A stretch of 64,000 bases of DNA from Obrimoposthia wandeli (GCA_977020255.1 CDROCS010002618.1:1-64000), one strand, 5' to 3'; numbered from the stretch's first letter, positions 24,401 to 64,000 are shown. Program-made: numbers and translations. The notes: a model not told the origin generated them from the sequence alone.

Positions 24401-24870
24401 AATATATATATTAAAAATATATATATATAATTACAATTTACAAAAAAAAATAAAAAAATACCTAATGATGACAATCCAAGTTGAGCTGGAATGAAGTCCT
24501 CTTCATTGATGGAATCCATCCAGCTGTCGTCCGTTGACTCGACGAAATCGGATTCCTCGATGGTGTCCAACCAGCTGTTATCGCTCCACTGAGGCTGCTC
24601 CATCTCGAAATCTGACTGGGTGATATTTTCCATCCAGTCATTGTTTGAGAATTGGGTTGCTGGTGTCAACTCCTCAAAATCTTCTTCGGAGATGTCGTTC
24701 ATCCACTCATTGTTAGACATTTGAGTGGATGGGGCATCAGCAGAATCAGGAGCCGGGAGAGAAGGACCAATGGCAGGACCATAAACTGGTAGACTGACTG
24801 CCACTGGAATTGGAGGTGGAGCTGGAGCGGCCTGCGAATCGCGCACCAATTGGACGATATTCCTCTTCTT
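21475..24870 (-). mobile_element. polB: Maverick PolB pseudogene including its spliced N-terminal extension (intron 24380-24461)
   Basis: Same motifs as 17-19 kb plus N-terminal SSGWTL..GSSYIPSP..VNVQNSDNLCFLYSVLA..GIDFPV..FEHLNNLSINVF. The exon at 24462-24849 splices in frame (TTA G|GA AAT) to a S/T/A linker ending QLGGGLSATNGRKRR. Confidence 0.9.
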
Positions 24871-24960
24871 GTTGTGTCCGGTCTAATCCACACACCCCTC
24901 CCCCTTTGTCCTTTTAAGCCGTACATGTGTGTGGAGTGAAATTTCGTGTAGGTGTGTAGA
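24870..24960. repeat. About 100-bp dispersed repeat (tgtgtccggtctaatccacac-cccctcccc..gtgtgtggagtgaaattt); also at 48551-48660 and 63911-64000
   Basis: Three aligned copies with different flanks at 24.9 kb versus 48.6 kb. Confidence 0.8.
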
Positions 24961-25164
24961 AATATTTTCTACCCCTCCCTCCTCCCAAACACTCAAAAAA
25001 ATAATTAACTCCATATAACACCCTTTACATTTAAAAATCTCATAATGCTCCCAAAATTTTGATTAAGGTCCTGAGAGGCCGTCAAATTAGCCAAAGCGTG
25101 CCCTCCGGGCCCGCGGTGGATCAACGAGTAATACATACAGGCTCGCGAATTTTTTTTTTTTTAT

Positions 25165-25800
25165 TTGGTGAGTCATTAAATTAGTCATCATGACCTGAGA
25201 AAAAATTTTCCTTATAAGAATTTATAAGAAAGATACATATATAGGGCCGCAAAAAATTTTAAATAATAAACTACATAAATTCGAAATAATTTTCATTTTT
25301 ATTTGGTGAGTCATCAAATTAGTCATCATGACCTTAAATGATCTTGACCTCATGATGACCTGTAATGATCTCATAAGGTCATATATAGGGCTGCAAAAAT
25401 TTTAAATAATAAACTACATAAATTCGAAATAATTTTCATTTTTATTTGGTGAGTCATCAAATTAGTCATGATGACCTTAAATGATCTTGACCTCATGATG
25501 ACTTAGACAACTTTGTACCCTTGATCTCATGATGACCTTAAATGACCTTGACCTCATGATGACCTGTAATGATCTCATAAGGTCATATATTTTTAAATAA
25601 TAAACTACATAAATTCGTTATAATTTTCATTTTCTTTCGATTCAACATCAAATTAGTCATGATGACCTTAAATGATCTTGACCTCATGATGACTTAGACA
25701 ACTTTGTACCCTTGATCTCATGATGACCTTAAATGACCTTGACCTCATGATGACCTATAATGATCTCATAAGGTCATGACCTTAACTTGACCTTAAATGA
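25165..25800. promoter_or_regulatory. Repeat array of TGACCT/AGGTCA half-sites and TGAGTCA motifs between divergent PolB and SIM-protein genes
   Basis: TGAGTCA at 25169, 25307 and 25450; DR4+DR0 tgaccttaaatgaccttgacct at 25533-25554; AGGTCATGACCT plus DR5 at 25771-25793. The repeats are certain; regulatory function is inferred. Confidence 0.55.
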
Positions 25801-26142
25801 GTTCATGAATTTTTTTATACCATCCAAACATGTACAGACAAGAAAATATTACTATTTTAAATCTAAAGATATACATGTATTCAAACATCAACAAAATTTA
25901 AGAAAATACCATAAATTCTTTGAATAATACGTTTTCATTGGACGTTAAACTTAAGCAACAAAATCTTAAGAAAATAGTTATATTTTCGAATAAAATATGT
26001 TTTATCCAATGACATTCCAGCATTCAAACATAGTTAAAAAATTGAGAAAAACCTACTGATTTTCAAATAAATTATTTGAATAACCCGCTCTCATTGGACG
26101 ACAAAACAGGGCTAGTCTATTGTTTTTTGTATATAAGGAAAC

Positions 26143-26678
26143 CTCTTTTCATTATTTTTCATAAATCAAAATCAAAACCAAGAATGCCAATTTTCAACAA
26201 CGTTGACCTAGACGAAGAGACGGAGGTTCAACTGTATGGGGATCTATCTCCAGTACAGCAGCGAACGCCACCTCCGGCGCAGTACATTGACTTACTTAGT
26301 CAAGACTCGTCGGTGGTGAGCGAAGGAGACGAAGGAGAAGCAGCAGCAAGAGCGCAGCTGTTACAAGAAGAAGCACCTTTGGCCAGCTCAACTCCAAAAG
26401 AAGAACCAATGAGCGTGCGAGGTGGGGTACAGAGATCCCAATATATCGATCTGACTAGTCAGGATTCGATAGAGAATTGGGAAGACTGTACTCCCAGGCT
26501 GAACACAGAAGCCAATCGTCCGGCAACTTCAGCAGTAACAGCAAGGAGATCCAATCTCTTCGACAATTTTGAGGTGGCAATCAAATGCCCCTGGAAATTG
26601 ATCCCGCTGTCTCAACCAGAGATAATACTGGCATCAGACTCAGACGAGGAGCTGTTTTATCAACAAATGTTTATTTAA
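26143..26678 (+). CDS. Acidic, low-complexity protein with 3-4 candidate SUMO-interacting motifs
   Basis: Intact ORF from ATG 26143: NNVDLDEE, QYIDLLSQDS, QYIDLTSQDS, EIILASDSDEE; GC-richer than its flanks; stop at 26678. Confidence 0.7.
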
Positions 26679-26765
26679 ATATGTATTTTTACAAAAATGA
26701 TTTTGAAGAATAAGAAAGATTAAGATAAGGAAAGGAGGAAGGAAGGAGATGGTGTTAAAGTCAGG

Positions 26766-27287
26766 TTAGTCAATCGTCAGGTCAATTGTCGGTTCCGGTC
26801 TATTTCGTTCCTCCAGGAACAGCATTACCCGCTCCAAGGGCAATGTTGAGAAAAACGGAACGTCGCCAAGGTAAAGCCCCAGTTGCTGGAAGATGTCCAG
26901 ATGTGGGCTTTGGCAGAATTGAGGTGCGCCGGAACTGTGTTGCTCATGGGTGCTGAGCCACACTCTCCAAGCATACTGCCACGAGTGGCGGTCACGGCTA
27001 GACCGCCACACCTCTTGTATGTTGCGCTGTGCATCGCGAAGGCGCATAGGACAAATGAATCATCGGCACCACTCGCCACTGATACAGCTGGTGGATGATC
27101 GTGTGCCCTTTGAACGTCCACGGCAGTGAACTGTCCAGTCTGCGAAGGGTGCTCAGCACATAGGGCAGGTGATATTGTTGGCCGGCCGAGCTTTGGCCCA
27201 CATATACAAACATGTATCGGGATGACGGCACCCGGCAGGGATTGCCGAGGAGTCCCGAATTCTGTTCAGGCACACCGAGTATATCAT
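26766..27287 (-). pseudogene. RING-H2 paralogue C with C-terminal SIM (PTIDLTID), disrupted copy
   Basis: Homologous to 59913..60440; split across ORFs 26998..27273, 26825..27121 and 26766..27047. Confidence 0.75.
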
Positions 27288-27606
27288 ACGCGTAAATGGT
27301 GTATCGGTTAAATCACTTTTTCTATTTGAAATTTATATGATTCTAAACCTTAATATTTTAACCTACCGAACTTTGTCTTTATTTGGGTACGTTTTCACAT
27401 TCTAAGTATATAAAAATTGTCTTTTGGGATTTTCAGTATAATAATTACAATTTAAAATAAACATCATACATAAAAATGGTAAAGGTCATTTACAGTTTCA
27501 TAAGATTATCCAATTCTAATTACAATTTATGTAGATATTTTACCGCGGTATGCGATACACAAATTTAGTTCATGATGTCACGTTTATGTCAAAAAGTTAC
27601 CTTCAA

Positions 27607-27911
27607 TTACTGCTGGCTGTTAGGCTGGCCTGTGCGTCGCTCCTCCACGCAGAACATGCACCAGCAGTCACAGATGTCCTTCCAGCAGTGCGCGATGAGT
27701 ACCACTGCTTGAAGACAATCTCGGTTGTATATGTAGTTTACCGAGAAGGATGCCCTGCACATCGGGCAGGTTGGGAGTCGAAGGGCTTGTTGCTGTTGAC
27801 AACTGGGATCCATGTCTCGAGGCACTGAACTTGGAATTTGTGCCCACAGTTGTTGAGTTTGGAGTAACAGTCCACGATGTCCTCGTAGCATATTGAACAT
27901 TCTCCAGACAT
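27607..27911 (-). pseudogene. RING-H2 paralogue B (one frameshift)
   Basis: MSGECSICYEDIVDCYSKLNNCGHKF..CLETW..[fs]PTCPMCRASF..HCWKDICDCWCMFC. Confidence 0.78.
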
Positions 27912-27969
27912 TGCTGTGAGAGGGGTGATGTTGAATTTGGGCTCGATTGAGGGTTGGTTGTTGTGTGAT

Positions 27970-28270
27970 GTTTACAAAAAGTGGTCGAATCTTGTCGTTC
28001 TGATGTACAGAAAAAACACCAACACTCTCTCAAGTTTTTCCAACAAAATTCCACCTGTACATCAACATCCTCTTGGTTGGGTTCTATTATGATGAACTTT
28101 GTGAATTGTCTTCTGCATACAGGGCAACGAGGGTATGTTGGATGGGGGAACTCTCCATAAGTTCTGATCCATTTTGATAAACATTGCTCGTGGTGTAGGT
28201 GGTTGCAGGTATTGGGTCTTGTTCTTCGTTCGGGTATATCTTCCAAACATATTGAACATTCCTCAGACAT
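27970..28270 (-). CDS. RING-H2 paralogue A (ORF track 27668..28270 reads through into paralogue B sequence)
   Basis: MSEECSICLEDIPERRTRPNTCNHLHHEQCLSKW..YPRCPVCRRQF..FCWKNLRECWCFFC: C3H2C3 spacing with the conserved Trp. Confidence 0.82.
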
Positions 28271-28398
28271 TCTAAATACATGATGACAATTAATTTCTAC
28301 ATGACTTTTACATAATTCTACACTTTTTGTACACTCACTTCTACGATATTTCTACATATTTTTACACACTAATTTATTCTACAACCTCCTCTGACTTG

Positions 28399-29035
28399 TC
28401 ATGTCTTGATGGGAGGCGGAGGTAAGGGTCGCAATTCCACTTCCTCCATCATGGGTGTGTTACAGCATCGTAGCTCTTTGCATCTTCGCCATATCCTTGG
28501 ATATATCTGACTGCCTTTCACGCACACGACTGTCAGTAGAAATACTGCAGTTGAAACTACAGCCATTACGATTAAAGCATTGACTGGTGTTATTCTGCTG
28601 TCTGAGGATTGATAATCGTACTTTCTTTTGATGTTTTTCGGTTTGGATGGCGTTTCATGTAGTGCTGTTCGGTTTCCGTGTATGATGTCCGATTTTTTAA
28701 TAAATCGCGGAATTGGATTTTTTGTTTTTTGTCTAAAGGGTATTATTATTCGAGATTTGAAATCCAGTGGAATCGTTCCCTTCACTCTTCTCCTCTCGAT
28801 AATTGTGCTTTAGTTTCTGGAATTGGGCTTTCTTCCTTTCACCTTTGCCTTCTTTGTGATTGTGTTTGGTTTCCCGGAATGGAATTTCCTGGGTCTGATC
28901 AGTTTTACGTCGTTTACCTGTGACCATAATTCTGTCAATAACTTTCCAGATGCGCTCATCGTTAGGCAATATTACTGATTTTGTTTGGATAACTTGGATA
29001 ATCCGTTTCCTTTTAGATATTGTTATTCTGGTTGT
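28399..29035 (-). pseudogene. Internally deleted 3' part of the type-I membrane protein (full copy at 46159..47607)
   Basis: Shares ILPNDERIWKVIDRIM, the TM segment VNALIVMAVVSTAVFLLTVVCV and tail RPLPPPPIKT. Confidence 0.75.
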
Positions 29036-29499: not shown

Positions 29500-32400
29500 A
29501 TGGATGCTGAGTATGTTTATTTTGTTTTAGCTGTGTGTTCTTTCCTTATTTAATTTGAGTGGTTCTGTTATTGCGGAGCTGGGGGAATATTGTCCAGATT
29601 CGACAAATTCCGTGCCGCAGTCTTTGGAGGCGAATTTGAGGAGGTTCGCAGATTGTACCAGCAGCAGTTCTGCGACAGAAAGAACAAATTGGTAAATGAT
29701 CTCTGCAGTTGACGCTCATGCCGCATTTATTCAGGGTTGGACGGCCTTGATGATGGCGGCCTTTGGAGGTCATCTCCCAATAGTGAAATATTTGGTGGAC
29801 GAAGGTGCAGATTTGAAGGTGAAGGATGATGGGGTAAATGATCTCTGCAGTTGACGCTCATGCCGCATTTATTCTCCCTTGATGGTGGCACTGTGAAATA
29901 TTTGGTGGACAGGTGCAGATTTGAAGGTGAAGCTCAATTCAGAATGGAGAGACTTCACTGCATTGGGCATCATTCCGGGGTCACTCTGAGGTCGTCCGTT
30001 ATTTGATCGAGAGCGGCGCTGATATCGCTGCAGTTGACAAAGTTGGTGATTTATTTACGTATCGCGATGAACTCATTCAGGATGGTGAAACAGCGCTGCA
30101 ATTGGCACAGAACAAGAACCAGAAAACATGTACAAAGATTCTAGAAGAAGCCGCACAGAAGAAGAAGAAGGAGAAGAAGAAGGTGAATGCGCCGATTTGT
30201 CTGTGATCCTCCAGAACATTTTCCATTCCTCGGGAATTCGATCTGCAGTTTATCGGTATAGAAATCGGCATTATCCCTCATCCGATGTTGTGCAGATCCG
30301 CTGCGCTCGGGACGACGACCTGGCCCAGTTCCAGAAGATCTTCCCCGCTGAGTACCTCGAGGTCGCGGACGCGCAGGTGGGCAGGGATAATCACCGCGGT
30401 AGCTGCACCGTTCTTCCCCCTCGAGATCCGATTGTCATTTTCTCTGGGTTGAGTCGTGATGCTCCACACTTGCCGAGGTCGAATCCGCATACATTATGTA
30501 AAGATTTCGCTGCAGATGATCCCTGGTAGTAAATACGGCCATGTGTAGCTGAGAAGCCAACGAAGGGTCTTCAGAATATGGCTCAGTTGAATGAGGGAGG
30601 AACTTTGGCCGATTTGAAATTTACCAATGGAAGAAAGAAACCTTGACTTGCCATCCAAATCTGGGCTGTGTTGGTTCTTGTTCGTATCGACGAATGCCGC
30701 ATTTGTCTCATTCTCTGGAGCTTGGATTCTGCAAGAAGATCTTCCTCTACCACTTCTAGAATAGTCTGCTGTCAACAGAATAATATCGAAAATTTATTTA
30801 GTTTATGACTTACAAACAGAAATTTGTTATAAGAATCTTTTTATCAATCATTTTAAAGGTTTTCTCAAATTCAGTCTGGAGACTTTTTTGTGGACGTCCT
30901 TGTCAAGAATGGCTCTACCAAGATTCTGGACTTCATCCGGTCTCAGTTCGTCACCAAGGAGGAGATGAAACAGTTCCAGGAAATGAGGAAGAAGACCAAA
31001 TCGAATAATCAGATTAGAATGACCCATGAAGTAATAACAACGAATTCGGTGACCCTGATAATTTTGATTTAGAGTCTTCTTTTCAGAGCAATCACTCACG
31101 GAATAATCGGACCCTTTGAGAAATGCTACGACCTATCTCTGATAAACTCCAAAACCCTTTTCGTGAGTGATCCCTCCTCAATTTGCATTATAACTCCAAA
31201 TAGAACGGCAAATGCGCGCTGCAACTGGCGATTGATTACGGATCCCGACTGATGACCAAGTTCATTATGAAGGGTCTCATTGATCAAGACGATGTTCGTT
31301 TCTCTTCTGAGGTTTATTAATGCATTTTAGTGGCTCCAATTAAGATTTGACACCGAAAGTGAAGATGGCAAAAGAATTCACAATTCCGTGATGAAGAGAA
31401 TAGAAAAGTTGGAAAAACGATTTAAAGTTTGATTGTATTATTGTCCGAGTTTACCTCGTCTCAGATGGGATTTTCCCGACTCCACATTGCCATCATGGAT
31501 AATAGGCCAGATGTGGCTCAGTATTTGTTAAATGGCGGTACATGCAAAGTTGACGACGGCTACGAGGTGATATTTGGGTCAATGAACTCTCATTAATTAT
31601 CATTTCTGGCGTAGACCATTGGCAGTGCCATTTACCACTCCCTTGAGCGAGGAAGCGATGAATGCTTCGACTCTCTTCTGCAGTATTCTCCCAAGCTGGA
31701 CTTTGTGAATAAGGTAAATATGGGTACGTAAGCTCGCATTACTGAGAATCCAGTTCGGTCAGAATTTGCTGCACGTGGCGATTGCGGGAGACGTGAAAGA
31801 AGACTGTTGCAGATATCTCGTAGACCAAATGACGGAGCTTGACCAGGTCGACTTTGTAAGTGTTATGGTGGTGGTGAGGCCGCGTTGACTGTGTCGTCTC
31901 TAGATAGGTCTGGCTGCGATCCACAGAGCTGTGCTGGCAGAGAACGAGGAGCTCTGTGCGGCTCTGGCGGAGAAGACAAGCAACTGGAACACGGCAATCA
32001 AGGTGGGGCCGATCTGTATTTCTCCACCATTTCACAATCATTAAGTTTACCATTTTATCCCTTTAGTGTTCATTCATTCAATTAATTTATCGATGTTGCC
32101 GAGCGAAATTGTGATTGTTCAAATATTATGTCAGTTTCCCATATTTTATTTTTTACAAATTATCGCTCTCTTGAGTAGGTAGAGATATCGATTCTCCCCA
32201 TTTCTCAGCCCCTGATCGAGGATCTCCACACTGCCCAAAATGAGCTGGCCACATTTCCCATCCCGCGACCGCCAGCTCTGAAATTTGAGGCCTGCAAGGA
32301 TCTGCCGCCGAGGCTGCTCTCTAAACTGACGACTCGCGAGAACGCGGTCACCCTCAACATCAAGGAGTTTGGCACCATATTTGACTGCTTCAGTAGCAAA

Positions 32401-33830
32401 CTGACACCAGACGATCTGGCTTTTGTGGACGGTCGTGGAAGTACGGTTGTTCATTTAGTCGCCGCGAGTTTGAATGCGGAATTGTGCGAGAATCTGTTGG
32501 CTGTGTCGATCGCGACCCTGAATCAGGACAATGACGATGGAAATACTCCCCTCATGGAGGTCATTGCAATACTGAAATGTTCAGTGAGCCCCCAAGTAAC
32601 ACGATGCATGTACTCCAGTAATTTGTTCATTCAGATACCCGAGACTGCGGTAGAGACCATCAGAATATTAGTGCAGTACGGATCCGATATCGGAGCCAAA
32701 TATAAAAGTGGCTGTACCATTTTCCACGAAGCCCTCAAATTGAGAAACGAAGAGTAATTTTATTGGTGACTTACTTCATTGTATTCCTTCAGGATCGGTC
32801 TGGCTCTGATGCAGTCAGATTTGGCCATAGCATTGATAACCAAGGATGTCTTTATGTTGTGTGCTGGAAATGGCTTCTTTACATTAATAGAGGGAGCTCT
32901 ACCTCGCATGAAGCATTCGCACATTTCAGCTATTCTCACTGAAGATGTTTACAGACTCATATTTGAATCGGTGCCCTTCAATACTCTCAGCAAGATGTAT
33001 ATGTACACTGAGGTTGAGGTAAAGCAGCAGCTGATGGACAAGTTTCTATTTGTAGCTTATGAGAATGGGGACGCGAAATTTATGGAGCAACTGATGAATT
33101 TGGCCGTCACTGATTGGAACGTTCTCCCAACGGGCGATACGATATTGACGTATCTGATAAGGAAAAGAGACGTGAAATATTGTGCAGATTTGTTGGATGT
33201 CAAGGGAGCAAAACGCCTGGTAAATAAATTGGATACCAGCCATCGTACGGCCATTCACGTTGCTCTAATTGAAGACGTTCCGGAGATAATTCTTCATCTC
33301 TTGCGATATACTACTGACATTAACGCAGTAGATGAAAATGGAGATCCCGCAATTGTCTTGTTAATGAAGAAGTTGAACCAGAATAAGAAGGTATTTTACC
33401 CGAGCTTTTTTGTTATTTTAAATCTCTCTAGACTGAAGAAACTGGACAGATAATGCAGCTAATTTACAGCTTCATAGAAAAAGGAGCGACGATAGACCGA
33501 GTGAATGAGAGAACCGGCAAGTCCCCGATTTGTTTGTGCATTGACAAAGCGAAGCGATCAAAAATTGAAATGTACAACAATGAAATCCACAAAGCGACAA
33601 TTGAGCCCATGGCCGTGGTAGAAGGAGCTTCAGCTTCACCATCATTTGTAATTTATTGACCAGATAATTGATTCTATATCCTCATTTAGATCTGCGGGAT
33701 TTGTGATACAAACCTGAAGGACTGCGTGCTGGAGTGCGGCCACACGTTATGTATGACTTGTGGAGGACGGCTCAGCGTCTGTCCGTTCTGCAGAGCTGCT
33801 CCTGCTAACCCCAGAAAGCTGCAGATTTAG
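29500..33830 (+). CDS. Host multi-exon ankyrin-repeat protein with C-terminal RING finger (Mind bomb/XBAT-like E3 architecture)
   Basis: Exons such as GWTALMMAAFGGHLPIVKYLVDEGAD, GETSLHWASFRGHSEVVRYLIESGAD, FGQNLLHVAIAG, RTAIHVALIED, separated by mostly 32-55 nt GT-AG introns; last exon CGICDTNLKDCVLECGHTLCMTCGGRLSVCPFCR* ending 33830. Exact exon model approximate. Confidence 0.8.
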
Positions 33831-38795: not shown

Positions 38796-38799
38796 CTCC

Positions 38800-49110: not shown

Positions 49111-49149
49111 TAAAATAAGGAAACTGATTAAAAGCAATGTTTATAAAAA

Positions 49150-50533: not shown

Positions 50534-50561
50534 ACAAACCCGTTTAAAGTTATTGTTTTGA

Positions 50562-51548: not shown

Positions 51549-51859
51549 ATGAAGAAAATTACCCTATTTTAAAGCTTTGGTTAAAGCCTCTTCTCATAAG
51601 AGAATGATTATTCTTAAAACATTTCCATCCTTTGTTGTAGATGATTTATTGGAAGTTTTGTATAATATAGTTTTGGGTCGAGTAAAAGTTGGAAAACGGA
51701 AAAATGTATTAAAGAAATATAGAAAAACTCTTCTAGATATTGCTAATGTAAAAATGGAAACGAAATATTATTCTTAAACAGAATGGTGGTTTCATAGGGG
51801 CTGTTATTCCAGTGGTTGCTTCAATTATCAGTAGTATATTAGCTGCTACACGATCATAA
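51549..51859 (+). pseudogene. Small basic Maverick core-like protein ending in a QxGGF hydrophobic motif
   Basis: ..ILKALVKASSHKR..LLEVLYNIVLG..LKKYRK..ILKQNGGFIGAVIPVVASIISSIL*, with frameshifts. Confidence 0.65.
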
Positions 51860-51949
51860 ACAATTATTTCTAAAATCAGCTAAAGATATGGGTGCTAACT
51901 CTTCTTTACCTAAATTTATTTTTTTTTCTATTCAAATTGTTGTAATGTA

Positions 51950-52800
51950 GAAGATATGATTCAATCCAAAAGATCCAATTGGCTACACAGGAGTTTCAAA
52001 ATTAGCAAAAAGAACAAAACAGAATTACAAGAAAACGCAGAAATGGCTGAGCGACCAGTTAGCCTACAGTCTGAACAAGCCGATGAGAAGAAGGTTTCCA
52101 ACTAGAGCTTACAAAACCAGCGGTCCTATTAATTTATGGCAAATGGATTTGATGGAGATGATCCCATATTCTTCCATTTTTATGGGATATCGATATATTT
52201 TAACATGTATTGATGTATTTAGCAGGTTTGCTCGTGCAATTCCAGTTAATGCAAAGTCTTCAATAGCTATGCTTGAAGCCATTAAAGAAATATTAAAAGA
52301 GGACATTCCACAAAATGTGCAAACTGATTTAGGAAAAGAATTTTATAATAAGCAAGTTCAATCATTATTTAAACAAAATAATATAAATCTCTACTTTGTG
52401 TTTTCACAATACAAAGCAGCAGTAGTAGAAAGATTTAATCGTACTCTAAGAGATCGAATAAAAAAGTATTTCACAAAAGAAGGAAATAAAAAAATGGGTC
52501 CAAGTTTTACCTAAAATAATACCTGCATATAATCACTCTGAACATAGAGGTCTCAAGGGAATGAGACCTGGTGATGTTACTAATAAAAACTCTATGGATA
52601 TTTGGATGACAGGAATAAAAAAGAAAATATTAAAAAAGCTAAATATAAGAAAAACGAATATGTTCGAATTTCGAAAATGAGCTCTACTCCATTTATTAAA
52701 AACTTTGATCAGAATTGGAGCGATGAAATATTTTGTATAAGTAAAATTGATCAAAAGAGTAATCCAATAATGTATACTTTTAAAGATGCTAACAATAATA
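51950..52800 (+). mobile_element. Maverick rve (DDE) integrase, frameshifted and truncated at the PolB junction
   Basis: NPKDPIGYTG..WLSDQLAYSLNKPMRRRF..LWQMDL..CIDVFSRF..QTDLGKEFYN..KAAVVERFNRTL; C-terminal YVRIS..NWSDEIF. Confidence 0.92.
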
Positions 52801-54758
52801 TAGTGTATAGTGTATTGTCATCAGGATTTAGTGAACATAATGTCAGATGTTTGCTGTAAGAGAGCTCGGATCGGAACCCATGCAAACATCTATGACACCA
52901 CTTACATCTTATCCTAACCGGTAAGGCTCCATTATCTAAATTTAGAAGACGATCTAAACTGGGAATTGCAGCATAATGGAATTTTTTATTCTGTTCGAGC
53001 AAAATTAAGTTGACCTGAGTGCCCTCATTTTTGCTCCTTTAAATTACATCTACAAAAGGACTTTTAAAAATTCCTTCATCTGTTACATTAACTGGGATAT
53101 CAGTATTATATTTGAATACATTAATACTCAAGTTATTAAGATGTTCAAATCTTGATATCGCAGTTAATTTAACAGGAATATCTATTCCATGATACTGCAA
53201 TTCATTTAAAAAAGGGGTATATTTACTGACACGCTCTCTGTGCTCAGTAATTACATCCCTTTTGAGGATGGCCAACACGCTATACAGAAAGCAAAGGTTA
53301 TCACTGTTTTGTATGTTAACAATGGAACGTGAAAGTTGAAGAGATCTAGGTGAAGGAATGTATGAATTCCTCGAAAGATACATCATGTCAGTGAACTTTG
53401 TAAGAACAAAGCTAACATTGTGAATTCTAACTAGAGTCTATCCACTACTTAACTCGCTATAATTAGCAATTTTTTCATCTAGTTTTCCTCCAATTTCAGT
53501 TACAAAATTATCATAGAAAACAGTTGCTTTATGTGAAATTACCCAAGTTTTAGTCTCCTCATTGACATTTTTAAACTGCACTGTTGCGTAAAATTGAACC
53601 TTAGCCTGTCCTAATTTAGTCACTTCTGATTTTAAAAGATTTTCAATATTTGAATCTACACCTACGTATAATAAAATTTCATTTCCTAATGGCACCTTAA
53701 CTATAACATATTTATTATTTAGGTGATACTCTATAGTAGCTCTACGTTTTTTTGGTGGGACTTTATTAAGAAATTGGCCCCGCCTCTTTCTTCCTACCGT
53801 CGCTGACAAACCTACCCCTAATGGAACGAGAAGACAACTATTTATATTAATCAAATTTATTTATATTAATTATCGATGCTGCTGATGTTGAGGCAATCGC
53901 AGCTGATGTGGAAGAGGTTGCTTTAATAGGTGCTGCCGATGTTGATGCAATCGCAGCTGGTGTGGAAGTTGATGCTGAGGCAACTTATATTGGTGCCGCA
54001 GATGATGTTGTGATAGCACTTGTAAAGGCAGGAGCCCCTCGATCATCAGTAGCTGATGTCATTGAAGTTCTTGAAGCGACTGTTGTGGACGCCGATGATG
54101 CTGCTGAAATAAATATATTAAAAAATAAATATGTTTTTTTTAATTATTACCTCTAAGGCTTGCAATTATCGATGTAGGCACTCACGATGGGGGAGGCATA
54201 GCTGTCGTAGCGGATGACGGCTGTATCAAGGTATTCCTGAATAAATAATAAAAATAAAATATATATACAATTTTAAAAAATAATCAGAAAAATAATAATA
54301 AAAAAGTACCTAATGAAGGCAATCCAACTGTAACTGGTTGGAAGTCCTCTTCATTGATGGAATCCATCCAGCTGTCGTCCGTTAACTCGACGAAATCGGA
54401 ATCCTCGGTGGTCTCCAACCAGCTGTTGTCGCTCCACTGCTCCATCTCAAAATCTTCTTGGGAGATGTCGTTCATCCACTCATTGTTAGTCATTTGAGTG
54501 GGTGAGGCAGAATCAGGAGCCGGGAGACCAATTGCAGTAAACGGGTTGAACGACTGCAACTGGAATTGGAGCAGGAGCGGCCTGTGAATCGCGCACCAAT
54601 TGCATGACAGCCCTCTTCTTGTTGTTGACCGTGAAACAGGATAGGTGATCTCTATATTCATCGAAGAAGTCTCAAAACTCCTTCTCCTCCATTGTTTTGC
54701 AGAATGGGCAGACGAAGAATTGAAGCTCATGAGACTTTGTCCAATAGTAGGCGGACAT
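52800..54758 (-). mobile_element. polB: Maverick PolB N-terminal half with zinc finger, acidic repeats and two introns (54237-54309, 54104-54150)
   Basis: ATG 54758: MSAYYWTKSHELQFFVCPFC..DHLSC..VRDSQ, W-x3-I-x3-DF repeats, S/T/A linker, then GRKRRGQFLNK..SELSSG..CFLYSVLA..CKWCHRC; several lesions. Confidence 0.88.
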
Positions 54759-57700
54759 TATCTCCATACAGGACTTTCCTCCATGCGGAGCCGAACCACC
54801 ACAATATGCTGGAAACAGGATACATTAGGCCGGGTCGAAACCTATCTTTTTTTCAGTTTTTCCAATTCCACACTATGCATGGGGTGCAGAAGGATTATGC
54901 AGACATCATACATAAAATTTAATGATATGCGACCCCCCTACCCCTAGCATACATCCATTTTATAAAGAAAATCAATTTTCTAATTTGTTTAAATAATATT
55001 TTATTTATTTTTATTTGGTTTTCTAGTTTTTTAGACATTTTGTTTATTAAAAATATATTAAAAGGTAAATTATATTTATTTTTCATTAATTTCATCTATT
55101 TTCAGATTAACTAAATTATATAAGATCATAAATACTACAGAAATATAATTATGGCAACAAGAAGCAAAACTCAGAATTCAACATGCTTGTATAAGAATAA
55201 ATGTAGTACTTGTTACTATTGATTACATAAAGATGCAAGTATTTGCAATATAGATGCAGTACGTGACTGTCTTTGTTAGATAGATATAGGAACGTTTAAA
55301 CATGATTATCAAATTATATAATACTTTATTTTATAAGTAGATAATTTAATTTAAATAAATTATAAAACACACACACGATATGTATTTTGGTGAATTGGTG
55401 TTAATACTACCTTTAGATAAAAAGATATATAGTTTTAAAGTATGTTACTAAAAATAGAATCTTTTTTTGACCTCACCGTGATCTTAAAGTACATTGTCCT
55501 CATGACGTCATGACCTTAACTTGACCTCAAAGTACATTGTCTTCATGACGTCATGACCTTAACTTGACCTTAACTTGCCTTGACCTCATGAGGTCATGAC
55601 CTACATCTTGTCCTCACCGTGACCTTAACTTGGCCTCATGAGGTCATGACCTATATTTTTCCCATGACCTCATGAGGTCATGACCTACATCTTTACCTCA
55701 CCGTGACCTCAACTTGACCTTAAAAATTTTGTCCTCAACTGGACCTGAGCTTGTCCTCAGGGGGGGGCTTTGTTCCAGAAGTCACACTTCTACCTACTTT
55801 CTATATTACTTTTCACAAATAATATAATTAATTTGAGAAATTCAGAAGTGTCAAGGAAGTGATTATTTAGTCAAAGGAGTTTTGGCAATTGTCATTTCAT
55901 GATTCATAAGGTAATAGTACACATCTAGTGAAGGACTGATGGAAGAACGATGGTATTGGGTTAATATTACTTGTAAAATTCTGTCAATAATTAACTAATA
56001 AAAAATATTTTAGAAATATTTTTATGTGGAATCTTTTTTGATGTTTCTTAAAATCAATGTCTATGGACGTTTCTTAGATTTTTCCACATGTGTTCACAGA
56101 TTATGAAATACTGATAGTAAAGAACATGCATTAATAAGTCGGGTCCAGTTAAATGACTGAGATAGGGATTTGAATCTCTCTAAACAGCAAGCTGAAATAT
56201 TTGACCCACGTTTTCAACAGTGGGATCTATTAATAACCAACACAATAATTGTATGGATTTGTAACAGATCGTAGCTAATACTGAATTGATTCATATAAAT
56301 ATAAAATCGTTTTTGTGTATAAGACTGTTCTGATCATGTCGATATCGCAAAATTCAGATGAGATGGAATTTCTGTAATAAAGTGACACATTTTGAATATA
56401 ATTAGGATATTTCATTAAAGGGAAAATATAAGGTCATTATTTATTTCGTATTGTGATGGGGAAGGAGGAGCAGGGCTTTCAAATCAAAGTTGGGATTTGT
56501 CTGTACGGGGCTGCATTTTGGTGACAATTTGGTTGCTTCATGTGGTGACACGATGGAGGAGAGGTGAATGTGTGAGTCGTCTTCTAAAGTATCAGTGGAG
56601 TGCAAATGTGTATGTCAATATGTCAGTGTTATGAGCACTCGCGTGTGTGAAAGGCTCTACCATCTATGATGGTCATGTCTTTACCAACCCCCTCCCAACA
56701 CGACAACAACTGCATGATTGTGCTGCGCGTGCGCATGTGTTTACTTTATAAATTCGTCAATATGTTGATGGTGTAGTGCAGAGTCACTGTGCTGCATAGG
56801 GTCACCTGTAGATCTGATGGATCGACTTTGGCCTCAGCTGCGCTATTTTCGGAAATGCAATCGACAATTAGACATATTTGCAATTTCAGATATTCAGTAT
56901 GTGCTAGGACCGCAAACCAGCCAGTCCAGCTCGCTCTGTCGACGTGAGAGAAACATGATCTACAGCGTGTTATTTCACGGGCGCGTGCCGCACATACACC
57001 GTGGCACCACACAGTTGCAGGCTGTCGTTTGGAACACCGACAGAAGGAACTTCTCCCACTCTAAATAACCAAGCAATTTGAAATCCATGCAATTGAAACA
57101 ATTCAAAATTATAAAACCGTTTCTTCAATTTTAAACTTTCACACTAAATAAGTAAATAATGTTAAAAGTATTTGGAATTTATTAAATAATTGTTTAACAA
57201 ATCTAAAATTAAAAATATTGTAAGATAACAATTTTAAATACAACGAATTTTGATAGTAAAATAATTAATTTTAGAAAAGTTTATTTAGGTCTTCGGTCCA
57301 GAGTTATTTCAATTTTTATGGAAGCATCTGGTTCGTGAATTCCTGACTGCATAGGACTTGTGTGGAATAGGGTGGGCACTTAAAACACCTAAATATATTC
57401 TAATCAAATTGAAGTTAATAATATGTCGACTAAGATGGGTAATTAATTAATACACAATTAAAAATACAGAACTCTAACATTAGTTATGAGTAGAGATATG
57501 AGGGGGTTCTAGAACACTACCACTACCATGATTTTACTTGCCTAAATTCTAATTCCAAATGTCTGCTTATTCTGTGAGTCTATGACTTCTAGAAATTACG
57601 TGCTTGCAGTTAAACGTAGGGCTAGTCTGAATCGTCTACGGTCAACCTCTTTCAACAATGCAATGTTAATCAAAACAAAAAATGTATTACAAAAAAATAC

Positions 57701-59912
57701 ATTGTTTGACTAGACTGGGTCATAACACTTCTATGCCAGTTTATGATTTTTAGCGTTTTACAATGTTCCAAGATTAATAAAATTGTTGGGGTTTCTATAT
57801 GAAACTCTGTGTTCTAATATAGATCCTCTGACTTTGGAGGGCCCCAACGTGAGTTCTATAGAAGCAGGACTTAAGGATGGTTGTGGCCTACTTAATGTTG
57901 TGCTTGCCTGTCTCAATTCTTATCTGAAGGTTTTTTGTTGTGTCGTAATCTGAAGAGTTTAGAACAATGCTTTCTAGTTGTAGGAAATCGTTTATTATTA
58001 AACACACTAGACTAACACGAATCAATACGTTTACGTACGTATTTCTAAAAAGTTACAGTAAAATTCCTAAGACTTCCGTCAGTCTCTACACAAGTGGGGA
58101 TGATCCACGTATCGATTTTAAGTTTATGTTTGTTCTAGTTACTAGAGTCTTTACTCTAAAATTAGGGATTGATTTTAGAGAGCTGTTGCTCTAAAAATAT
58201 GAGTAGTTTAGAGAGCTGGTGCTCTAAATTAGGGAATGAGCTTAGATAGATTTTAGGGTAGTTTACAGAGCTGGTGCTCTAAAATAGAAGTAGGTTACAG
58301 AGTTGTTGCTCTAAAAAAAGGGATGGAGTTCGGTAAAACTGTTGCTCTTAAAAATATGGCAATGTAAAATAGGGTAAGATACTTGTACTAATTTTATAGA
58401 GTGTTCACTCTGAAAATATGGCAATGTAATAACTCAGTTCGATTTATAGCTTAATTTCAATAATGACAATCACTTTAGCTTGATTTCAATAAAGATAATT
58501 ACTTTGGCTTTATTTCAATAACGACAATTACTTTAGCTTAATTTCAATAATGACAATAATGACAATCACTTGAGCTTAATTTCAATAACAACAATTATTT
58601 TAGCTTAATTTCAATAATTACAATTACTTTAGCTTAATTTCAATAATAACAATTATTTTAGTTTAATTTCAATAATGACAATAATGACAATCACTTGAGC
58701 TTAATTTCAATAATGACAATAATGACAATCACTTGAGCTGAATTTCAATAACAACAATTATTTTAGCTTAATTTCAATAATGACAATTACTTTAGCTTAA
58801 TTTCAATAATAACAATTATTTTAGTTTAATTTCAATAATGACAATAATGACAATCACTTGAGCTTAATTTCAATAATGACAATAATGACAATCACTTGAG
58901 CTGAATTTCAATAACAACAATCACTTTGGCTTAATTTCAATAACGACAATTACTTTAGCTTAATTTCAATAATAACAATTATTTTAGCTTAATTTCAATA
59001 ATGACAATAATGACAATCACTTGAGCTTAATTTCAATAATGACAATAGCAACAATCACTTTAGCTTAAATTCAATAACGACAATCACTTTAGCTTAATTT
59101 CAATAACGACAATTACTTTAGCTTAATTTCAATAACGACAATTTTCTTAATTTCAATAACGTTCCGCACGATTCTCACCGGTGGTTCTCCTTTGCGTGAC
59201 AAGCTAGACTCCTTGTCTCAGATTCGGGTCGCGGACTGCTTGCTCTGATTCGTGGTCCTTTGGAGTACGGTACGGATCAGTTGCTCGCTCGGCGCGATAT
59301 CCTTGTTTCTCCGAAAGCTTGTTTCCGGGAAAGGCAGCTGTCTCGATCTCTTTGAATTATCGGAGGGCTCTTTTTGATTTGCAATCAGCTGGAATTAGAA
59401 ATTAGCTTCTCCTCCTGGCGATCGACTCTAATATTTTTGTCGACAATTATTCTGTGATTTTCTGATATTTACCTTGTGCCACTAATCCAAGCGCTTCTCA
59501 CTTTTATACTCAATTTACTTTTCTCTAGTTCCTGCGACGTTTTTTAAATAAAGCACTTAAATTGAGAGTACTTACTTTTAGATATCTGATCGATCCGATA
59601 TTTGCTGTTAATAGACTCGCTGTATTTCCTAATTCTGAAGTAGAGTTAATGGATTAAAGCACTTAATTTGCTTACCGTGCCCTTAGTCCCTAATTCTTGT
59701 CTGGACACGAAGCGGCCCTTCTCTCTGCTTGTCGATAGTCTCTGAAAAGGAATTAAGTGCTTCTTCTTCCGTTTTCCAATTATTGGATTCTGTTTCAATT
59801 TTTCCTTACTTATATTACGAATATTCACTAACATGTATTATATACAACAAAATGAATGAGTGTTCAGAGAAGGAAAATAGCAGGGAAGGATGGAATGTTA
59901 AAAGTTTTTAAA

Positions 59913-60440
59913 TTAATTGTCGATGGTTAGGTCTATTGTCACAGCTTGCCGGTTCCGCTCCTCCAGGAACAACATAACCCGCTCCAAGGGTAATGTTGGG
60001 AAGACCGGAGTGTCTCCTATGTACATCCCCTGCTGCTGGAAGATATCCAGGTGTGGGCTTTGGCGGATTAATGGCTCTCTGGGACGGCTTTGCTCGTGGG
60101 TGCTGAACCACAGCCTTTGCGCATACTGCCATGAGTGGCTAGACCGCCACCTCTCTCGGATGTAGAGCTGTGTGTTGTGACGGCGCGCAAGGCACACGGG
60201 GCATTGGCAGTGCTCACCACCAATGCAACTGGTGGGTGAGTGGGTGCCCTTGGGTCGTCCACGGCACTGAAGCGCCCACTCGGAAAAGGGGGCGCGGTAC
60301 ATCGGACATGTGATGTGGCCGGGGGGTCGAGCCTTGGCCCACAAGTAGAGGCAGGACTCGTGAAATTTGTGCCGGCACCCGGCAGGAGTTGCCGAGGTAC
60401 CCCGGACACTGTTGAGGCACCCCGAGCATATCATCTGCAT
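59913..60440 (-). CDS. RING-H2 paralogue C with second Cys cluster and C-terminal SIM (open ORF, 175 aa)
   Basis: CSGC..CRHKFHESCLYLW..CPMY (last ligand C>Y), SCIGGEHCQCPVC, terminal VTIDLTIDN. Confidence 0.8.
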   Translation of the reverse strand: MQMICSGCLNSVRGTSATPAGCRHKFHESCLYLWAKARPPGHITCPMYRAPFSEWALQCRGRPKGTHSPTSCIGGEHCQCPVCLARRHNTQLYIRERWRSSHSWQYAQRLWFSTHEQSRPREPLIRQSPHLDIFQQQGMYIGDTPVFPTLPLERVMLFLEERNRQAVTIDLTIDN

Positions 60441-60775
60441 AATGGTGTGTTGGTTAATTTACTTCTCTATTTGGAGTTTATTTTATTTTAACTTAGAAAT
60501 TATCCTACCGAATTTTGTCATTTCTTTGGGCTTGTTTTTTATTAGGTATACAAATTGTCTTTTTGGAATTTTCAGTATAATAATTACAATTTCAAATACG
60601 CAACATACATAAAAATGGTAATGTCATTTTACAGTTTCACAAGATTATACAATTATGATTACAACTATGGTAGCTAATTTATCACGGTATGCGATACACA
60701 GGGTAGTTCATGATGTCATGTTTTAAGTCAGAAAGTTACCTTCGGTTACTGCTGGCTGTTGGGCTGGCCTGTGCG

Positions 60776-61051
60776 TCACTCCTCTATGCAGAACGAACAC
60801 CAGCAGTCGCAGATGTTCTTCCAGCAGTGTACAATGGATATCACTGCTTGGAGGCTGTCCCGGTTGTAGACGTAGTGCACCGAGAAGGTTGCTCTGCACA
60901 TCGGGCAGTTTGGGTAGTCGAGGAGATTGTTGCTGTTGGTGATTGGAATCCACGTCTCGAGGCATTCGACGTGGAACTGGTGGTCGCAGTTGTTGGGTTG
61001 GGTGTAGAGGTCCACTATGTTCTCGTAGCATATTGAACATTCTCCAGACAT
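60776..61051 (-). CDS. RING-H2 paralogue B
   Basis: MSGECSICYENIV..CDHQFHVECLETW..CPMCR..HCWKNICDCWCSFC. Confidence 0.82.
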   Translation of the reverse strand: MSGECSICYENIVDLYTQPNNCDHQFHVECLETWIPITNSNNLLDYPNCPMCRATFSVHYVYNRDSLQAVISIVHCWKNICDCWCSFCIEE

Positions 61052-61111
61052 TGCTGTGAGAGGGGTGATGTTGAATTTGGGCTCGATTGAGGGCTGGTGG
61101 TTGTGTGATGT

Positions 61112-61411
61112 TTACACAAAAGTGGTCGAATTTTGTCGTTCTGATAAACAGAAATAACACCAACACTCTCTGAAATTCTTCCAACAGAATACCACCTGTA
61201 TATCTACATCCTCTTGGTTGGGTTCTATCATGATGAACTTTGTGAATTGTCTTCTGCATACAGGGCAACGAGGGTATGTTGGATGTACGAATTCTCCATA
61301 AGTTCTGATCCATTTTGATAAACATTCCTCGTGATGTAAGTGGTTGCAGGTTTCGGGTCTTGTTCTTCGTTCGGTTAAATCTTCCAAAAATATTGGACAT
61401 TCTTCGGACAT
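61112..61411 (-). CDS. RING-H2 paralogue A (second Cys mutated to Phe)
   Basis: MSEECPIFLED..CNHLHHEECLSKW..CPVC..CWKNFRECWCYFC. Confidence 0.75.
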   Translation of the reverse strand: MSEECPIFLEDLTERRTRPETCNHLHHEECLSKWIRTYGEFVHPTYPRCPVCRRQFTKFIMIEPNQEDVDIQVVFCWKNFRECWCYFCLSERQNSTTFV

Positions 61412-61529
61412 TCTAAATACATGATGACAATTAATTTCTACATGAGTTTTACATATTTCTACTTATTTGTACAATCGCTTCTACATATTTTTACACACTA
61501 ATTTATTCTACAACCTCCTCTGACTTGTC

Positions 61530-62990
61530 ATGTCTTGATGGGAGGCGGGGGTAAGGGTCGCAATTCCACTTTCTCCATCATGGGTGTGTTTCAGCATCGT
61601 AGCTCTTTGCATTTCCGTCGTATTATTGGGCATATCTGACTGCCTTTCACGCACACGACTGTCAATAGAACTGCTGTTGTTGACACTACTGCCATTCCAA
61701 TTAAAGCATTGACTGCTGTTATTCCACTGTCTGAGGATTGGTAATCGTATTTCATTTTGTTGTTTGTCGGTTTGAATGGCGTCTCCATTGATGTTGATCG
61801 GTTTCCGTGTATTATGTCCGATTTTCTAATAACTCGCGGATTTGGATATTTTGTTTTTGGTCTAACAGGTATTATTATTTGGGATTTGAGATGATATTTG
61901 GGATCTAGTGGAATCGTTCCCTTCACTCTTGTCCTCTCAATAATTGTGCTTTGATTTCTGGGCTCGAGCTCTTTTCCTTTCACCTCTGTCTTTGTTATGA
62001 TTACTTTTGGCTTCTCGGAATGGCGTTTACTTCCGTTTACCTTTGCCTTCTTTTTGACTATGATTGGTTTTACGGAATGGCGTTTACTTCCTTTCACCTT
62101 TTCCTTTTTTATGACTATGATTGGTTTTCCGGGAATTATTTTCCTGGGTTTGATACTTATACCGAGTCCACGAAATCGACGTGTCTGGTATCTTAGAGTT
62201 ATATAGAATATTTAATCTGTTATTACCATGATTATGGTAGTGGTCTCTTTAGCATTGCTGGGAATTCGGTTACATAGACATTCCGTATCAAAATGTGGTA
62301 CTAACATTTGGGGTTTAATTTCGAATTTGATTCCACCATCTGGATTAGGACACGACACTGTTTCTTTGTCAGTTTCTAACAATCTGAAGAATAATCTAAC
62401 GGAATTCCATACGGTTTTACGTCGTCTACCTGTGATCATAATCCTGTCGACAACTTTCCAGATGCGCTCGTCGTTAGGCAATATTAATGACTTTGTTCGG
62501 ATAATTTGAATAATTTGTTTCCTTTTTGATATGGTTATTCGTAGGTGTAATACCTTTCCATGGTAGAATAATATCAGTCGGTAGTAAAGTGTATGTTGGT
62601 CAATCTTTATTTTGATCTGGCGGATGACATACAATTTCTGATCGACATTTTCGGTTGCTGATGTTTGTAGGTGAATGTCTACTACGTGATTTGTTTTTAA
62701 TAGAGGAATTTCTATGTATAACGCACGTATCGTATCTTGTCTCCATTTACTGATCATGATCTCATAACCAGCCTCGGTCGTGGTGATTTGCATAATCAGC
62801 ATGATTCCTATGATCGTCCGGTTTCGAATTTCAGGAACTTCTCTGGGGTAACTCAAGTTACTCATGTAGTACGGTCTTTCCTCAATATGTTCATATATCG
62901 TTGGCTGATACTCTGGTGATGGTTCATTTAGGAATGCTGGTCTTGGTATAGTTGTGTTAAATTTTTGTAAATTCATTTGACCTGCTTGTC
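61530..62990 (-). pseudogene. Second full-length copy of the membrane protein gene, broken near 62212 and 61591
   Basis: ORFs 62212..63075 and 61591..62097 match 46159..47607. Confidence 0.78.
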
Positions 62991-63049
62991 TTGCGAGATC
63001 GTGACGTTTCTTTTTTGATCTCAACTCTATCTTATTTGGTTGTCTTTGT

Positions 63050-63572
63050 TTAGGAAATAAATAAATAAATAACACAAGTGTGAAGATCTATATTAAACAA
63101 AATACATTCAATCAGATACTCATAATTTAAAGATTTAACACCAAGTATCATTATCTTTCCGCTCGCAACAATGTTCACGCATAGGGGATTGTATTTGACG
63201 TATCGAGGCCCTGGAAGATTTCTGGCTCGTAAACAGCTTCCGATCCCATACTCTTACTCATCTTGTTCAGGTTTATTGATGTTTCTAGATTGCTGCTGAG
63301 ACTGATTGATTGGATTCTTTCGATTTTTATATCAAAAGGAAGACTGCTTTCATCCAGCACTGTTTTGCAACCCATTATTCTGCATGTACCTAAATTATAA
63401 TTATATATAAATGTAAAAATAAATTACCAAATTTGAAAATGATAATAGTGTAACCTTCACACTTGAGTCGATACTGATAAGGCTTCCAAGTCCGAAATGG
63501 TAAGTGTTGAATGTTACTTACAACCATTCCCTTGTAATTAATATTCACTAAATTGATATTGTGAAGTAGCAT
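63050..63572 (-). pseudogene. TBP: TBP-like gene copy 2 (intron 63390-63427; exon 1 intact; frameshift after YEPEIF)
   Basis: ORFs 63390..63572 and 63175..63375 splice as FKFG|TCRIMGCK. Confidence 0.82.
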
Positions 63573-64000
63573 TTCTGATTATTATAAACTTATTTCTTCT
63601 ATTTATACTATTTGAAAATCTATTTTTAGATTGCATGTCTTGGTTTAATTGCCTATGCTATGAAATCTAATATTTCTTACTCGTCTAATGATAATTGTCT
63701 TGCAATATGGACATGTAATAAAACAATCTGAACATTTAATACACGTGTTTAAGTGACCGCATGGTAAAAATGCCACGGAAATCGCATCGCTCATGCAAAC
63801 AACACATTCGAGATTTGGTAAGAGGTACTCGAGATAATTTATCCGATGTTTTGGTTCAGATTTTATTTCTAAATATCTTAAATCCGTTATAAACTCATAT
63901 AGTAGGTGGATGTGTCCGGTCTAATCCACACCCCCTCCCCCCTTGTCCTTTAAAACCGTGCATGTGTGTGGAGTGAAATTTTGTGTAGGTGTGTGGAGTG

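Follow-up and report, generated by a model that had tools for sequence, protein, structure and literature searches.

TATA-binding protein (TBP)-like factors are known from several DNA viruses, including giant viruses, African swine fever virus (B263R), and gammaherpesviruses (BcRF1), and the TBP mimics of beta- and gammaherpesviruses read a variant TATA box on late genes. In ICP0 of herpes simplex and in the cellular SUMO-targeted ligases RNF4 and RNF111, a RING domain and a SUMO-interacting motif (SIM) are combined in one protein. Features that recall these systems occur in a stretch of the Obrimoposthia wandeli genome comprising the first 64,000 nt of contig CDROCS010002618.1 (the window; the genome is AT-rich and measures 1.35 Gb), where they lie in remnants of Maverick DNA elements and of a giant Gypsy retrotransposon. 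With Mavericks, Polintons, and adintoviruses, the DNA elements share PolB, an rve integrase, an A32-type ATPase, adenain, terminal inverted repeats (TIRs), and a 6-bp target-site duplication (TSD). For adintoviruses, an oncoid-like gene upstream of PolB and homologs of inhibitor of apoptosis proteins (IAPs) have been reported (Starrett et al. 2021, PMC8502044; preprint 10.1101/697771). In the parts of that paper considered here, the main text does not describe TBP, which is found as a label in a figure legend, given to MELD viruses whose PolB is adintovirus-like, in a section on non-animal datasets, whereas in O. wandeli several animal Maverick families carry TBP, in about 10,000 copies and with promoters of two classes. 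Burro retrotransposons, according to one section of Arkhipova and Yushenova (2019, PMC6431247), exceed 30 kb, occur in thousands of copies, and carry a mononegavirus-like env between gag and pol, a BIR domain, and cargo linked to apoptosis and ubiquitination. A search of mainly open literature gave no description of a Polinton TBP beyond the PMC8502044 legend, as far as that paper was covered, and no long terminal repeat (LTR) element with combined IAP, phosphatase, and RING cargo.

A preliminary description of the window had read a thrice-repeated block (PolB, a repeat array, a SIM protein, RING-C, RING-B, RING-A, and a membrane protein, followed in two copies by TBP and an IAP-type RING) as a single Maverick lineage with a host-control module. 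Its observation is partly confirmed and its interpretation partly supported. Pfam bears out the gene calls, finding PolB, the rve integrase, RING-A, -B, and -C in three places, the IAP-type RING (48288–48560 and 63648–63920), and TBP pieces at 47683–48054 (−), 50135–50530 (+), and 63178–63423 (−). Three similar copies of the block are indeed present: comparison of the window with itself gives about 97% identity between 39.9–48.6 kb and 55.2–64 kb, and 77 to 81% between either of these and the block at 26.7–28.9 kb. The repeated order is not, however, the gene order of one element, because the block is interrupted by Maverick termini (AGTAGGT..), at 40466 (−), 48541 (+), 55798 (−), and 63901 (+), and by an LTR end. 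Pieces of three mobile elements, namely the giant Gypsy and two Maverick families, here called I and II, make up the block as a pile that was first nested and then amplified in tandem, a reading to which we assign a probability of roughly 85%. The window thus holds nested debris of known element classes, including a Maverick variant with its own TBP and matching promoters and a Burro-like element with unusual cargo. TBP1 and IAP belong to one Maverick family and TBP2 and the SIM protein to another, and the RINGs and membrane open reading frame (ORF) belong to the Gypsy; the module as a whole is not the property of a single lineage.

The pile formed in a few steps. Its 3′ fragments come from a giant Gypsy, and TBP1 with half of an IAP gene from a family I Maverick; a family II Maverick, whose capsid block has been lost, inserted into this IAP gene, the pieces were joined by deletions, and a 15.3-kb unit was duplicated. 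The identity and tiling of the pieces were established against fetched genomic copies by tblastn and nucleotide comparison (Table 1; fetched loci carry L numbers). Other copies break sharply at 26657 and 47663: the SIM side ends at the first junction (26650–26657) in 30 of 40 scored copies, and the TBP1 side begins at the second in 31 of 40. Window genes are truncated at these junctions, the SIM ORF being cut at codon 158 of 263 and the IAP represented by its 3′ part only. Most ORFs of the window are broken, and no capsid or protease gene is left in its 64 kb. The integrase converging on PolB at 38.6 and 52.8 kb, which the preliminary description had pointed out, is there, but as a deletion junction.

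The Gypsy/TBP1 junction (47663) has nine exact and two weak matches, on five contigs, the SIM/RING junction (26657) was found 11 times, on seven contigs, and the block of spacer, LTR, and RING-C (40–45 kb) 37 times, on approximately 28 contigs, at 93 to 97% identity and with varied right-hand breakpoints. Set against thousands of copies of the parent elements, counts of 9, 11, and 37 make the single-lineage reading fail. One endogenous virus lineage holding PolB, integrase, TBP, IAP, SIM protein, the three RINGs, and the membrane protein is suggested by the threefold order within the window and by the recurrence of the junctions on several contigs, but measured against either parent family the junction copies come to less than 1%, the RING block is missing from bounded Mavericks and interrupted by termini and an LTR end, and a common non-Maverick flank lies downstream of six of the seven fetched SIM/RING copies, a pattern that segmental duplication would produce. 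This reading is largely refuted, and we give it next to no weight. A repeated gene order within one window can evidently arise by tandem duplication of nested debris.

The spacer-LTR-RING-C block fits the nested pile less comfortably, since it meets various Maverick pieces in five of eight fetched cases, and its recurrence implies that some chimeric amplification did occur. Its 37 copies with varied breakpoints, often beside Maverick genes, could represent a young nonautonomous chimera, formed when Maverick pieces came to enclose a RING-C-bearing 3′ fragment of the Gypsy, and multiplied through the replication or recombination of Mavericks. We consider this quite improbable, as the family I TIR at 40466 points in the other direction, which makes the RING block flank and not cargo, no paired TIRs or TSD were seen around the block, and the copies lie on the same contigs as other junctions and the ankyrin repeat described below. 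A host silencing locus resembling a piRNA cluster, collecting fragments of the two most abundant elements and kept for defense, is unlikely: every Gypsy or PolB fragment of the window has minus-strand orientation, the chimeric blocks are concentrated on a common set of contigs, and in planarians LTR elements and Polintons are the main PIWI targets (PMC8532177, in the part considered), but the integrase, TBP2, and SIM pieces are on the plus strand and the strand bias follows from tandem duplication. That the 15.3-kb tandem copies are an assembly artifact, as the many frameshifts might suggest, and with near-identical arrays on contigs C2618 and C5251 that may be haplotypes, is highly improbable, given that the copies differ by about 3% and in array length and that the junctions recur on further contigs in different surroundings.

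Judged by their genomic copies, RING-A, -B, and -C and the membrane ORF come from a Burro-like giant Gypsy, of which they form the 3′ end. The preliminary description had named their occurrence without PolB and integrase as speaking against itself, and this is what is seen: thousands of RING/membrane blocks close an LTR retrotransposon on its 3′ side, with neither PolB nor a Maverick integrase; a 22-base motif of RING-A is present 7,026 times genome-wide. What the window retains of the membrane ORF is its final 500 codons, with a single hydrophobic segment around residue 437; elsewhere the ORF reaches as many as 1,838 codons. A search with the 500 codons scored 86 matches out of 15,359 candidates. 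For 67 of these the open frame exceeds 530 codons, and 25 of the 86 were fetched: four chosen for long frames, the top 12, and nine chosen for short frames so as to favor junction copies. Nineteen run into Gypsy sequence (all four long-frame copies, six of the top 12, and all nine short-frame copies), and the other six, all among the top matches, have the junction seen in the window.

The full order of the Gypsy, seen in fuller copies only, is LTR, gag with a zinc knuckle, a mononegavirus-type fusion glycoprotein, BIR, RING, protease, reverse transcriptase, RNase H, integrase, and then a 3′ cargo of dual-specificity phosphatase domains, membrane segments (four hydrophobic), and the RING-A, -B, and -C ORFs, which are of the RING-H2 type, before the second LTR. 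One copy has LTRs that are 98% identical, with TG..CA ends and a 4-bp TSD; these LTRs and the order from protease to integrase place the element in Gypsy/Metaviridae. The env (PF24664, E 7e-69) and BIR (PF00653, E 1.5e-14) matches in L019 recur in L024. We call the element Burro-like because an env between gag and pol together with a BIR is the Burro layout, as given in the section of PMC6431247 considered. Thousands of copies and cargo linked to apoptosis and ubiquitination are likewise shared. The copies seen here measure 14.5 to 25 kb, compared with more than 30 kb for Burro proper, and the Gypsy ORFs scanned gave no MATH, BCL2, SUMO-like, or ankyrin match at E ≤ 0.001 with Pfam, which is less sensitive than the published HHpred. 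What they add after the integrase, namely phosphatase domains, membrane segments, and three RING-H2 ORFs, is not listed in that section and extends the cargo of a little-studied class of elements by phosphatase and RING/SIM genes. The first phosphatase domain keeps HCxxGxSRS, whereas the phosphatase-like gene of the Mavericks lacks the Arg. Copies of this Gypsy lie at L018–L021 on contig C621 and also at L013–L016, L023–L026, L030–L031, and L045.

Seven variants of the RING-C tail were found, over 42 locus hits, and every one has (T/I)IDLT at its C-terminus; this single SIM-like motif makes RING-C a candidate SUMO-targeted ubiquitin ligase. It would share with ICP0, RNF4, and RNF111 a RING and a SIM-like motif in one protein, differing from them in its RING-H2 ligand pattern and in being encoded by a retrotransposon. 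The likeness to herpesvirus immediate-early regions drawn in the preliminary description is an analogy, as all three RINGs are RING-H2 and ICP0 is absent from the 15 PDB matches of RING-C, the top ones being RNF24, synoviolin, AMFR, and ZNRF3. No RING-C homolog was found at E ≤ 0.001 in a large protein set limited to proteins of near length.

The suggestion that IAP and a SIM-bearing protein are Maverick genes was correct, and the proposed check for termini succeeded: bounded Mavericks have TIRs starting with AGT and 6-bp TSDs. Genome-wide, a TBP2 motif of family II occurs 10,845 times and an IAP motif of family I 2,495 times. The bounded family II copy L120–L121 (16.3 kb) has 87-bp TIRs starting AGTAG and the TSD CAGGAA, and encodes the SIM protein, an exonuclease-like protein, the oncoid-like protein, PolB, protease, putative capsids, integrase, TBP2, and two proteins resembling single-stranded DNA-binding (SSB) proteins. 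It is defective and without an ATPase match, the ATPase being present in another copy. The bounded family I copy L048–L049 (11.6 kb, TSD TCTGTA) has long TIRs that contain the TGACCT/CRE array, and encodes putative capsids, integrase, ATPase, the phosphatase-like protein, TBP1, and IAP. RING-A, -B, and -C and the membrane ORF are absent from both of these TIR/TSD-bounded copies, and the Maverick SIM protein has no RING and no usable match in an Atlas search.

As for the hallmark genes, protein-primed PolB is recognized by PF03175, although the bounded family I copy has lost it; the integrase matches PF00665 (E 1.6e-11 and 1.4e-12), and the packaging ATPase of L023 matches Pox_A32 (E 3.7e-5), that of the window being broken. 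The search for capsid and protease genes proposed in the preliminary description was half rewarded. An adenovirus-like protease is present in other copies (PF00770, E 6.8e-7 in L124), and the protease H/D/Q/C motifs follow the putative capsid gene in L051, L121, L048, and L044, although L051 has no Pfam match. The putative major capsid is a 409-aa ORF assigned by position and motifs. The enhancer-like arrays of the preliminary description do contain TGACCT/AGGTCA half-sites, 21, 13, and 16 in the three arrays out of 73 in the window, with zero, two, and two CRE sites and three, zero, and zero AP-1 sites, all counts being inflated by tandem repetition of one unit. The 25-kb array and the 40- and 55-kb arrays are different repeats, from the two Maverick families. 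Pairwise dN/dS values (RINGs 0.26–0.46, SIM protein 0.24, membrane ORF 0.33, TBP 0.13–0.49, integrase 0.15) speak for past purifying selection, not for function of the window copies.

Other Maverick copies show further arrangements. Another family has its own 304-aa RING gene just inside the terminus, beside a divergent PolB (L046:8549–9460, +), a further one has an intronless TBP between ATPase and PolB, and in another copy a TPR-repeat gene adjoins TBP1 (L028:263–4954 and L023:7264–8580). Fold-back (inverted) duplications of 2 to 5 kb, 84 to 98% identical, occur inside L051–L052, L058–L059, and L028–L029, and may reflect replication by strand displacement.

TBP is a genuine Maverick gene with relatives elsewhere. 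In agreement with the preliminary description, these Mavericks supply their own TBP, which lies inside TIR/TSD-bounded copies. The 154-aa TBP of an intronless natural copy was modeled with a pLDDT of 96.9 and matches TBP entries in Foldseek with E 5e-9 and TM 0.62 to 0.74; all 44 PDB matches listed at E ≤ 0.001 are TBP entries, and the viral fold matches are giant-virus TBPs and, weakly, BcRF1. With the viral TBP-like factors the element TBP shares a TBP fold within a DNA virus; it differs in its 154 aa, in an identity of 7 to 20%, and in its location in an integrating element of 12 to 17 kb in which no RNA polymerase gene was seen. Among 62 element TBPs, F20 is conserved in 51, F39 in 61, and F100, F116, and N114 in all, and E96 and E98 of the EPE loop in 60; F100, F116, and the EPE loop were assigned by alignment, and F20 and F39 were equated with first-repeat residues by the model. 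The Asn of the second repeat is replaced by Ser in 58 of 62, and the Leu before the last Phe by Asn in all 62, at a position that alters TBP specificity in yeast mutants. In a quick version of a tree, 113 of the 131 rows form a clade (SH-aLRT 99) that holds the element TBPs and excludes the host TBP and TBP-like genes. The latter (L105–L110, on contigs C238, C60, C1092, and C968) comprise a head-to-head pair, two intronless copies, and one divergent gene. For TBP2, an intron of 34 to 38 nt was found in eight of 14 starts, with exon 1 open in four of those eight.

Of the 2,805 clusters that a TBP profile recovered at E ≤ 0.001, 51 reach E ≤ 1e-30. Of 20 metagenome TBP loci, four lie beside a Polinton-type ATPase, seven beside an SSB-like gene, and one beside an exonuclease-like gene, and five look like unrelated cellular TBPs. 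IMG/VR scans gave three weak TBP loci, none with a Polinton marker match.

Short boxes upstream of the Maverick genes fall into two classes. TATAAAC is found 32 to 42 nt before the ATPase (10/11), the small gene after TBP2 (9/9), the putative capsid (6/7), and the exonuclease-like gene (10/11); TATATAA precedes TBP2 (6/7), IAP (13/13), the SIM gene (11/15), and the phosphatase-like gene (2/3). The classes do not overlap, as no gene of either class has the box of the other. Counted more widely, the ATPase box is present in 13 of 15 copies, including three of four metagenome loci, and lies before none of 11 other TBP genes. In late element halves TATAAAC exceeds its frequency in shuffled sequences, with 7 versus 2.0 and 8 versus 2.1 (0/100), 5 versus 1.9 (3/100), and 6 versus 2.8 (9/100), and it is not above shuffles in early element halves or in the Gypsy.

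These patterns suggest an early-to-late switch in intact Mavericks, toward which we lean slightly. Host TBP would read canonical TATATAA boxes on the early genes for TBP, IAP, the phosphatase-like protein, and the SIM protein. The short element TBP, with its changed DNA-facing residues, would then read TATAAAC before the ATPase, the putative major capsid, and neighboring genes, recruiting host TFIIB and RNA polymerase II through the conserved EPE loop, with IAP holding off apoptosis. The Gypsy would run a separate anti-host kit that includes RING-C. An element-encoded TBP with a matching 7-bp box and two invariant substitutions at positions known to alter TBP specificity would give a simple answer to how Maverick gene expression is timed, and with about 10,000 TBP copies in one genome one may ask whether leaked viral TBP would disturb host promoters.

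Several observations weigh against such a switch. The promoter counts come from related copies and not from independent events, and IMG/VR scans with IAP, wider TBP, ATPase, and putative capsid profiles gave no match, and so no TBP-less Maverick to serve as a control. TATAAAC is missing before the integrase (0/9), the oncoid-like gene (0/10), and, within 250 nt, the putative minor capsid (0/6); it lies 100 nt upstream of a PW-like gene, and one SSB-like gene also has it. The 409-aa putative capsid has no match in Pfam, PHROGs, or PDB by sequence or profile, and its single-sequence model reached a pLDDT of 29. In the metagenome locus L084 a PolB end, TBP, and ATPase lie in a row, but this TBP groups with cellular-type TBPs outside the element clade and its ATPase lacks the box; the locus is possibly a second, separate TBP capture by a Polinton. 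Finally, wild-type TBP has been crystallized on a C(−25) TATA variant (PDB 1qn3, by its title), so host TBP may itself read TATAAAC. For these reasons the switch is a proposal. A passenger or decoy TBP that titrates TFIIB, NC2, or Mot1 or has no late role, with host TBP reading TATAAAC, is a doubtful though substantial alternative. The shortened first repeat (154 aa against approximately 180), the 1qn3 complex, and the genes without a box agree with it; the DNA-facing phenylalanines and asparagines, near-invariant over 62 divergent members, and the TBP beside an ATPase with the same box in unrelated metagenome loci do not.

The Gypsy and Maverick IAPs, by sequence comparison, share a lineage, either because the gene was transferred or because each element type took it up independently from a host gene. 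The C-terminal 135 residues of the Maverick IAP align with the Gypsy RING region at 117 to 119 bits, whereas the best solved IAP RING scores 38.7 bits; this closeness and the SIM-like end of RING-C appear to be new. A TBP lies no more than 1.5 kb away in 26 of the 30 top-scoring BIR loci, which show several additional arrangements; of the other four, two are Maverick IAPs without TBP and two resemble host genes. No IAP homolog was found at E ≤ 0.001 in the large set of near-length proteins, and the search for a host IAP with both BIR and RING gave two host-like BIR genes without RING. The shared IAP points to gene sharing between unrelated virus-like elements. We propose tentatively, putting it at a little below even, that the Mavericks of this lineage use an altered-specificity TBP to switch from TATATAA early to TATAAAC late genes, which would make them the smallest DNA elements with a TBP-mimic late program, and that they share an IAP lineage with an env-bearing giant retrotransposon, anti-host genes passing between the two, the latter also having a SUMO-targeted ligase.

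Table 1. Mobile-element pieces in the window, with coordinates from its first nucleotide
Feature	Position	Strand	Remarks
Second partial copy of family II PolB	17059–19087
Family II Maverick PolB	21497–24352	−	Frameshifted; Pfam DNA_pol_B_2 and Endonuclease_7; 94–96% to family II copies
Oncoid-like gene, 3′ part, upstream of PolB	24343–24875	−	Acidic, CXXC-bearing; 88% to codons 46–183 of a 214-aa ORF in L056; labeled by position, after Starrett et al.
Family II TIR	24873–24960	+	Outermost bases missing; 87–92% to TIRs of bounded copies
Family II subterminal tandem array	25150–25810		TGACCT half-sites, AP-1 sites; same array between TIR and SIM gene in L120, L055, L116
Family II acidic (SIM) protein, codons 1–158	26184–26657	+	Two YIDL(L/T) SIM-like motifs
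Giant Gypsy 3′ fragment: RING-C, RING-B, RING-A, membrane ORF end	26715–29028	−	Older, broken; about 80% to Gypsy copies with LTRs
Integrase fragment abutting PolB fragment	38566–38798; 38817–39340	+; −	Deletion remnant; tblastn
Family I TIR with TGACCT/CRE array	39757–40466	−	Outer end AGTAGG at 40466; inverted at both ends of TSD-bounded L048–L049
Gypsy LTR 3′ end	42461–43001	−	80–90% to LTR ends of four Gypsy copies
29-bp array after Gypsy LTR end	43121–43725		Followed by 800 bp of another repeat
Giant Gypsy 3′ internal region: RING-C, RING-B, RING-A, last 500 codons of phosphatase/membrane ORF	44527–47663	−	RING-C frameshifted; 85–94% to Gypsy copies; Pfam RING
Family I piece: TBP1 (two exons, 47683–48182), IAP 3′ RING part (48288–48541)	47663–48541	−	96% to L046, L049
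Family II TIR inserted in family I IAP gene	48541–48637	+	Again at 63901; same insertion in L043, L092
Two related SSB-like genes	48707–49700	−	Atlas scores 0.87–0.89; Pox_I3 on 12% of one cluster
Family II TBP2, two exons	50031–50530	+	38-nt GT-AG intron; stop in exon 1
TATAAAC boxes	50529 and 51246	+	
Small gene (50563), ATPase (50736–51275), pX-like gene, integrase (51945–52805)	50529–52805	+	ATPase broken; integrase 3′ end lost
Family II PolB N-terminal part and oncoid-like gene	52799–54824	−	Capsid block and PolB C-half deleted at ~52800
Second copy of 15.3-kb composite unit	55181–64000		More copies beyond the window (L060, L061)
Second copy of family I TIR with array	55181–55798
Second copy of Gypsy 3′ internal region	59817–63033
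Second copy of family I TBP1/IAP piece	63033–63901

The two SSB-like genes may offer a weak lead, and a lead only, to poxvirus I3-like single-stranded DNA-binding proteins. The repeat piece at 43720–44523 is also found without the RING block.

Further features lie around these pieces. Segments 15568–19087 and 20036–23521 form a tandem duplication of a PolB-bearing segment with GTGA repeats, 99 to 100% identical. At 29900–33700 there are pieces of an ankyrin-repeat gene with short introns and a richer GC content (42–45%), which has at least 40 copies at 96 to 99% identity, often on the same contigs as chimeric junctions, and is possibly the cargo of another mobile element. The ORF at 37416–38276 (+) has no Pfam match and similar copies in L017 and L022; its motifs resemble the restriction-like endonuclease end of site-specific non-LTR retrotransposons. 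Fragments on the minus strand at 1386–2084, 5145–5450, and 6303–6716 match PIP5K, DUF1759 (Bel/Pao gag-like), and ubiquitin, and tandem repeats occur at 1342–1809, 10092–10640, and 14748–15218.

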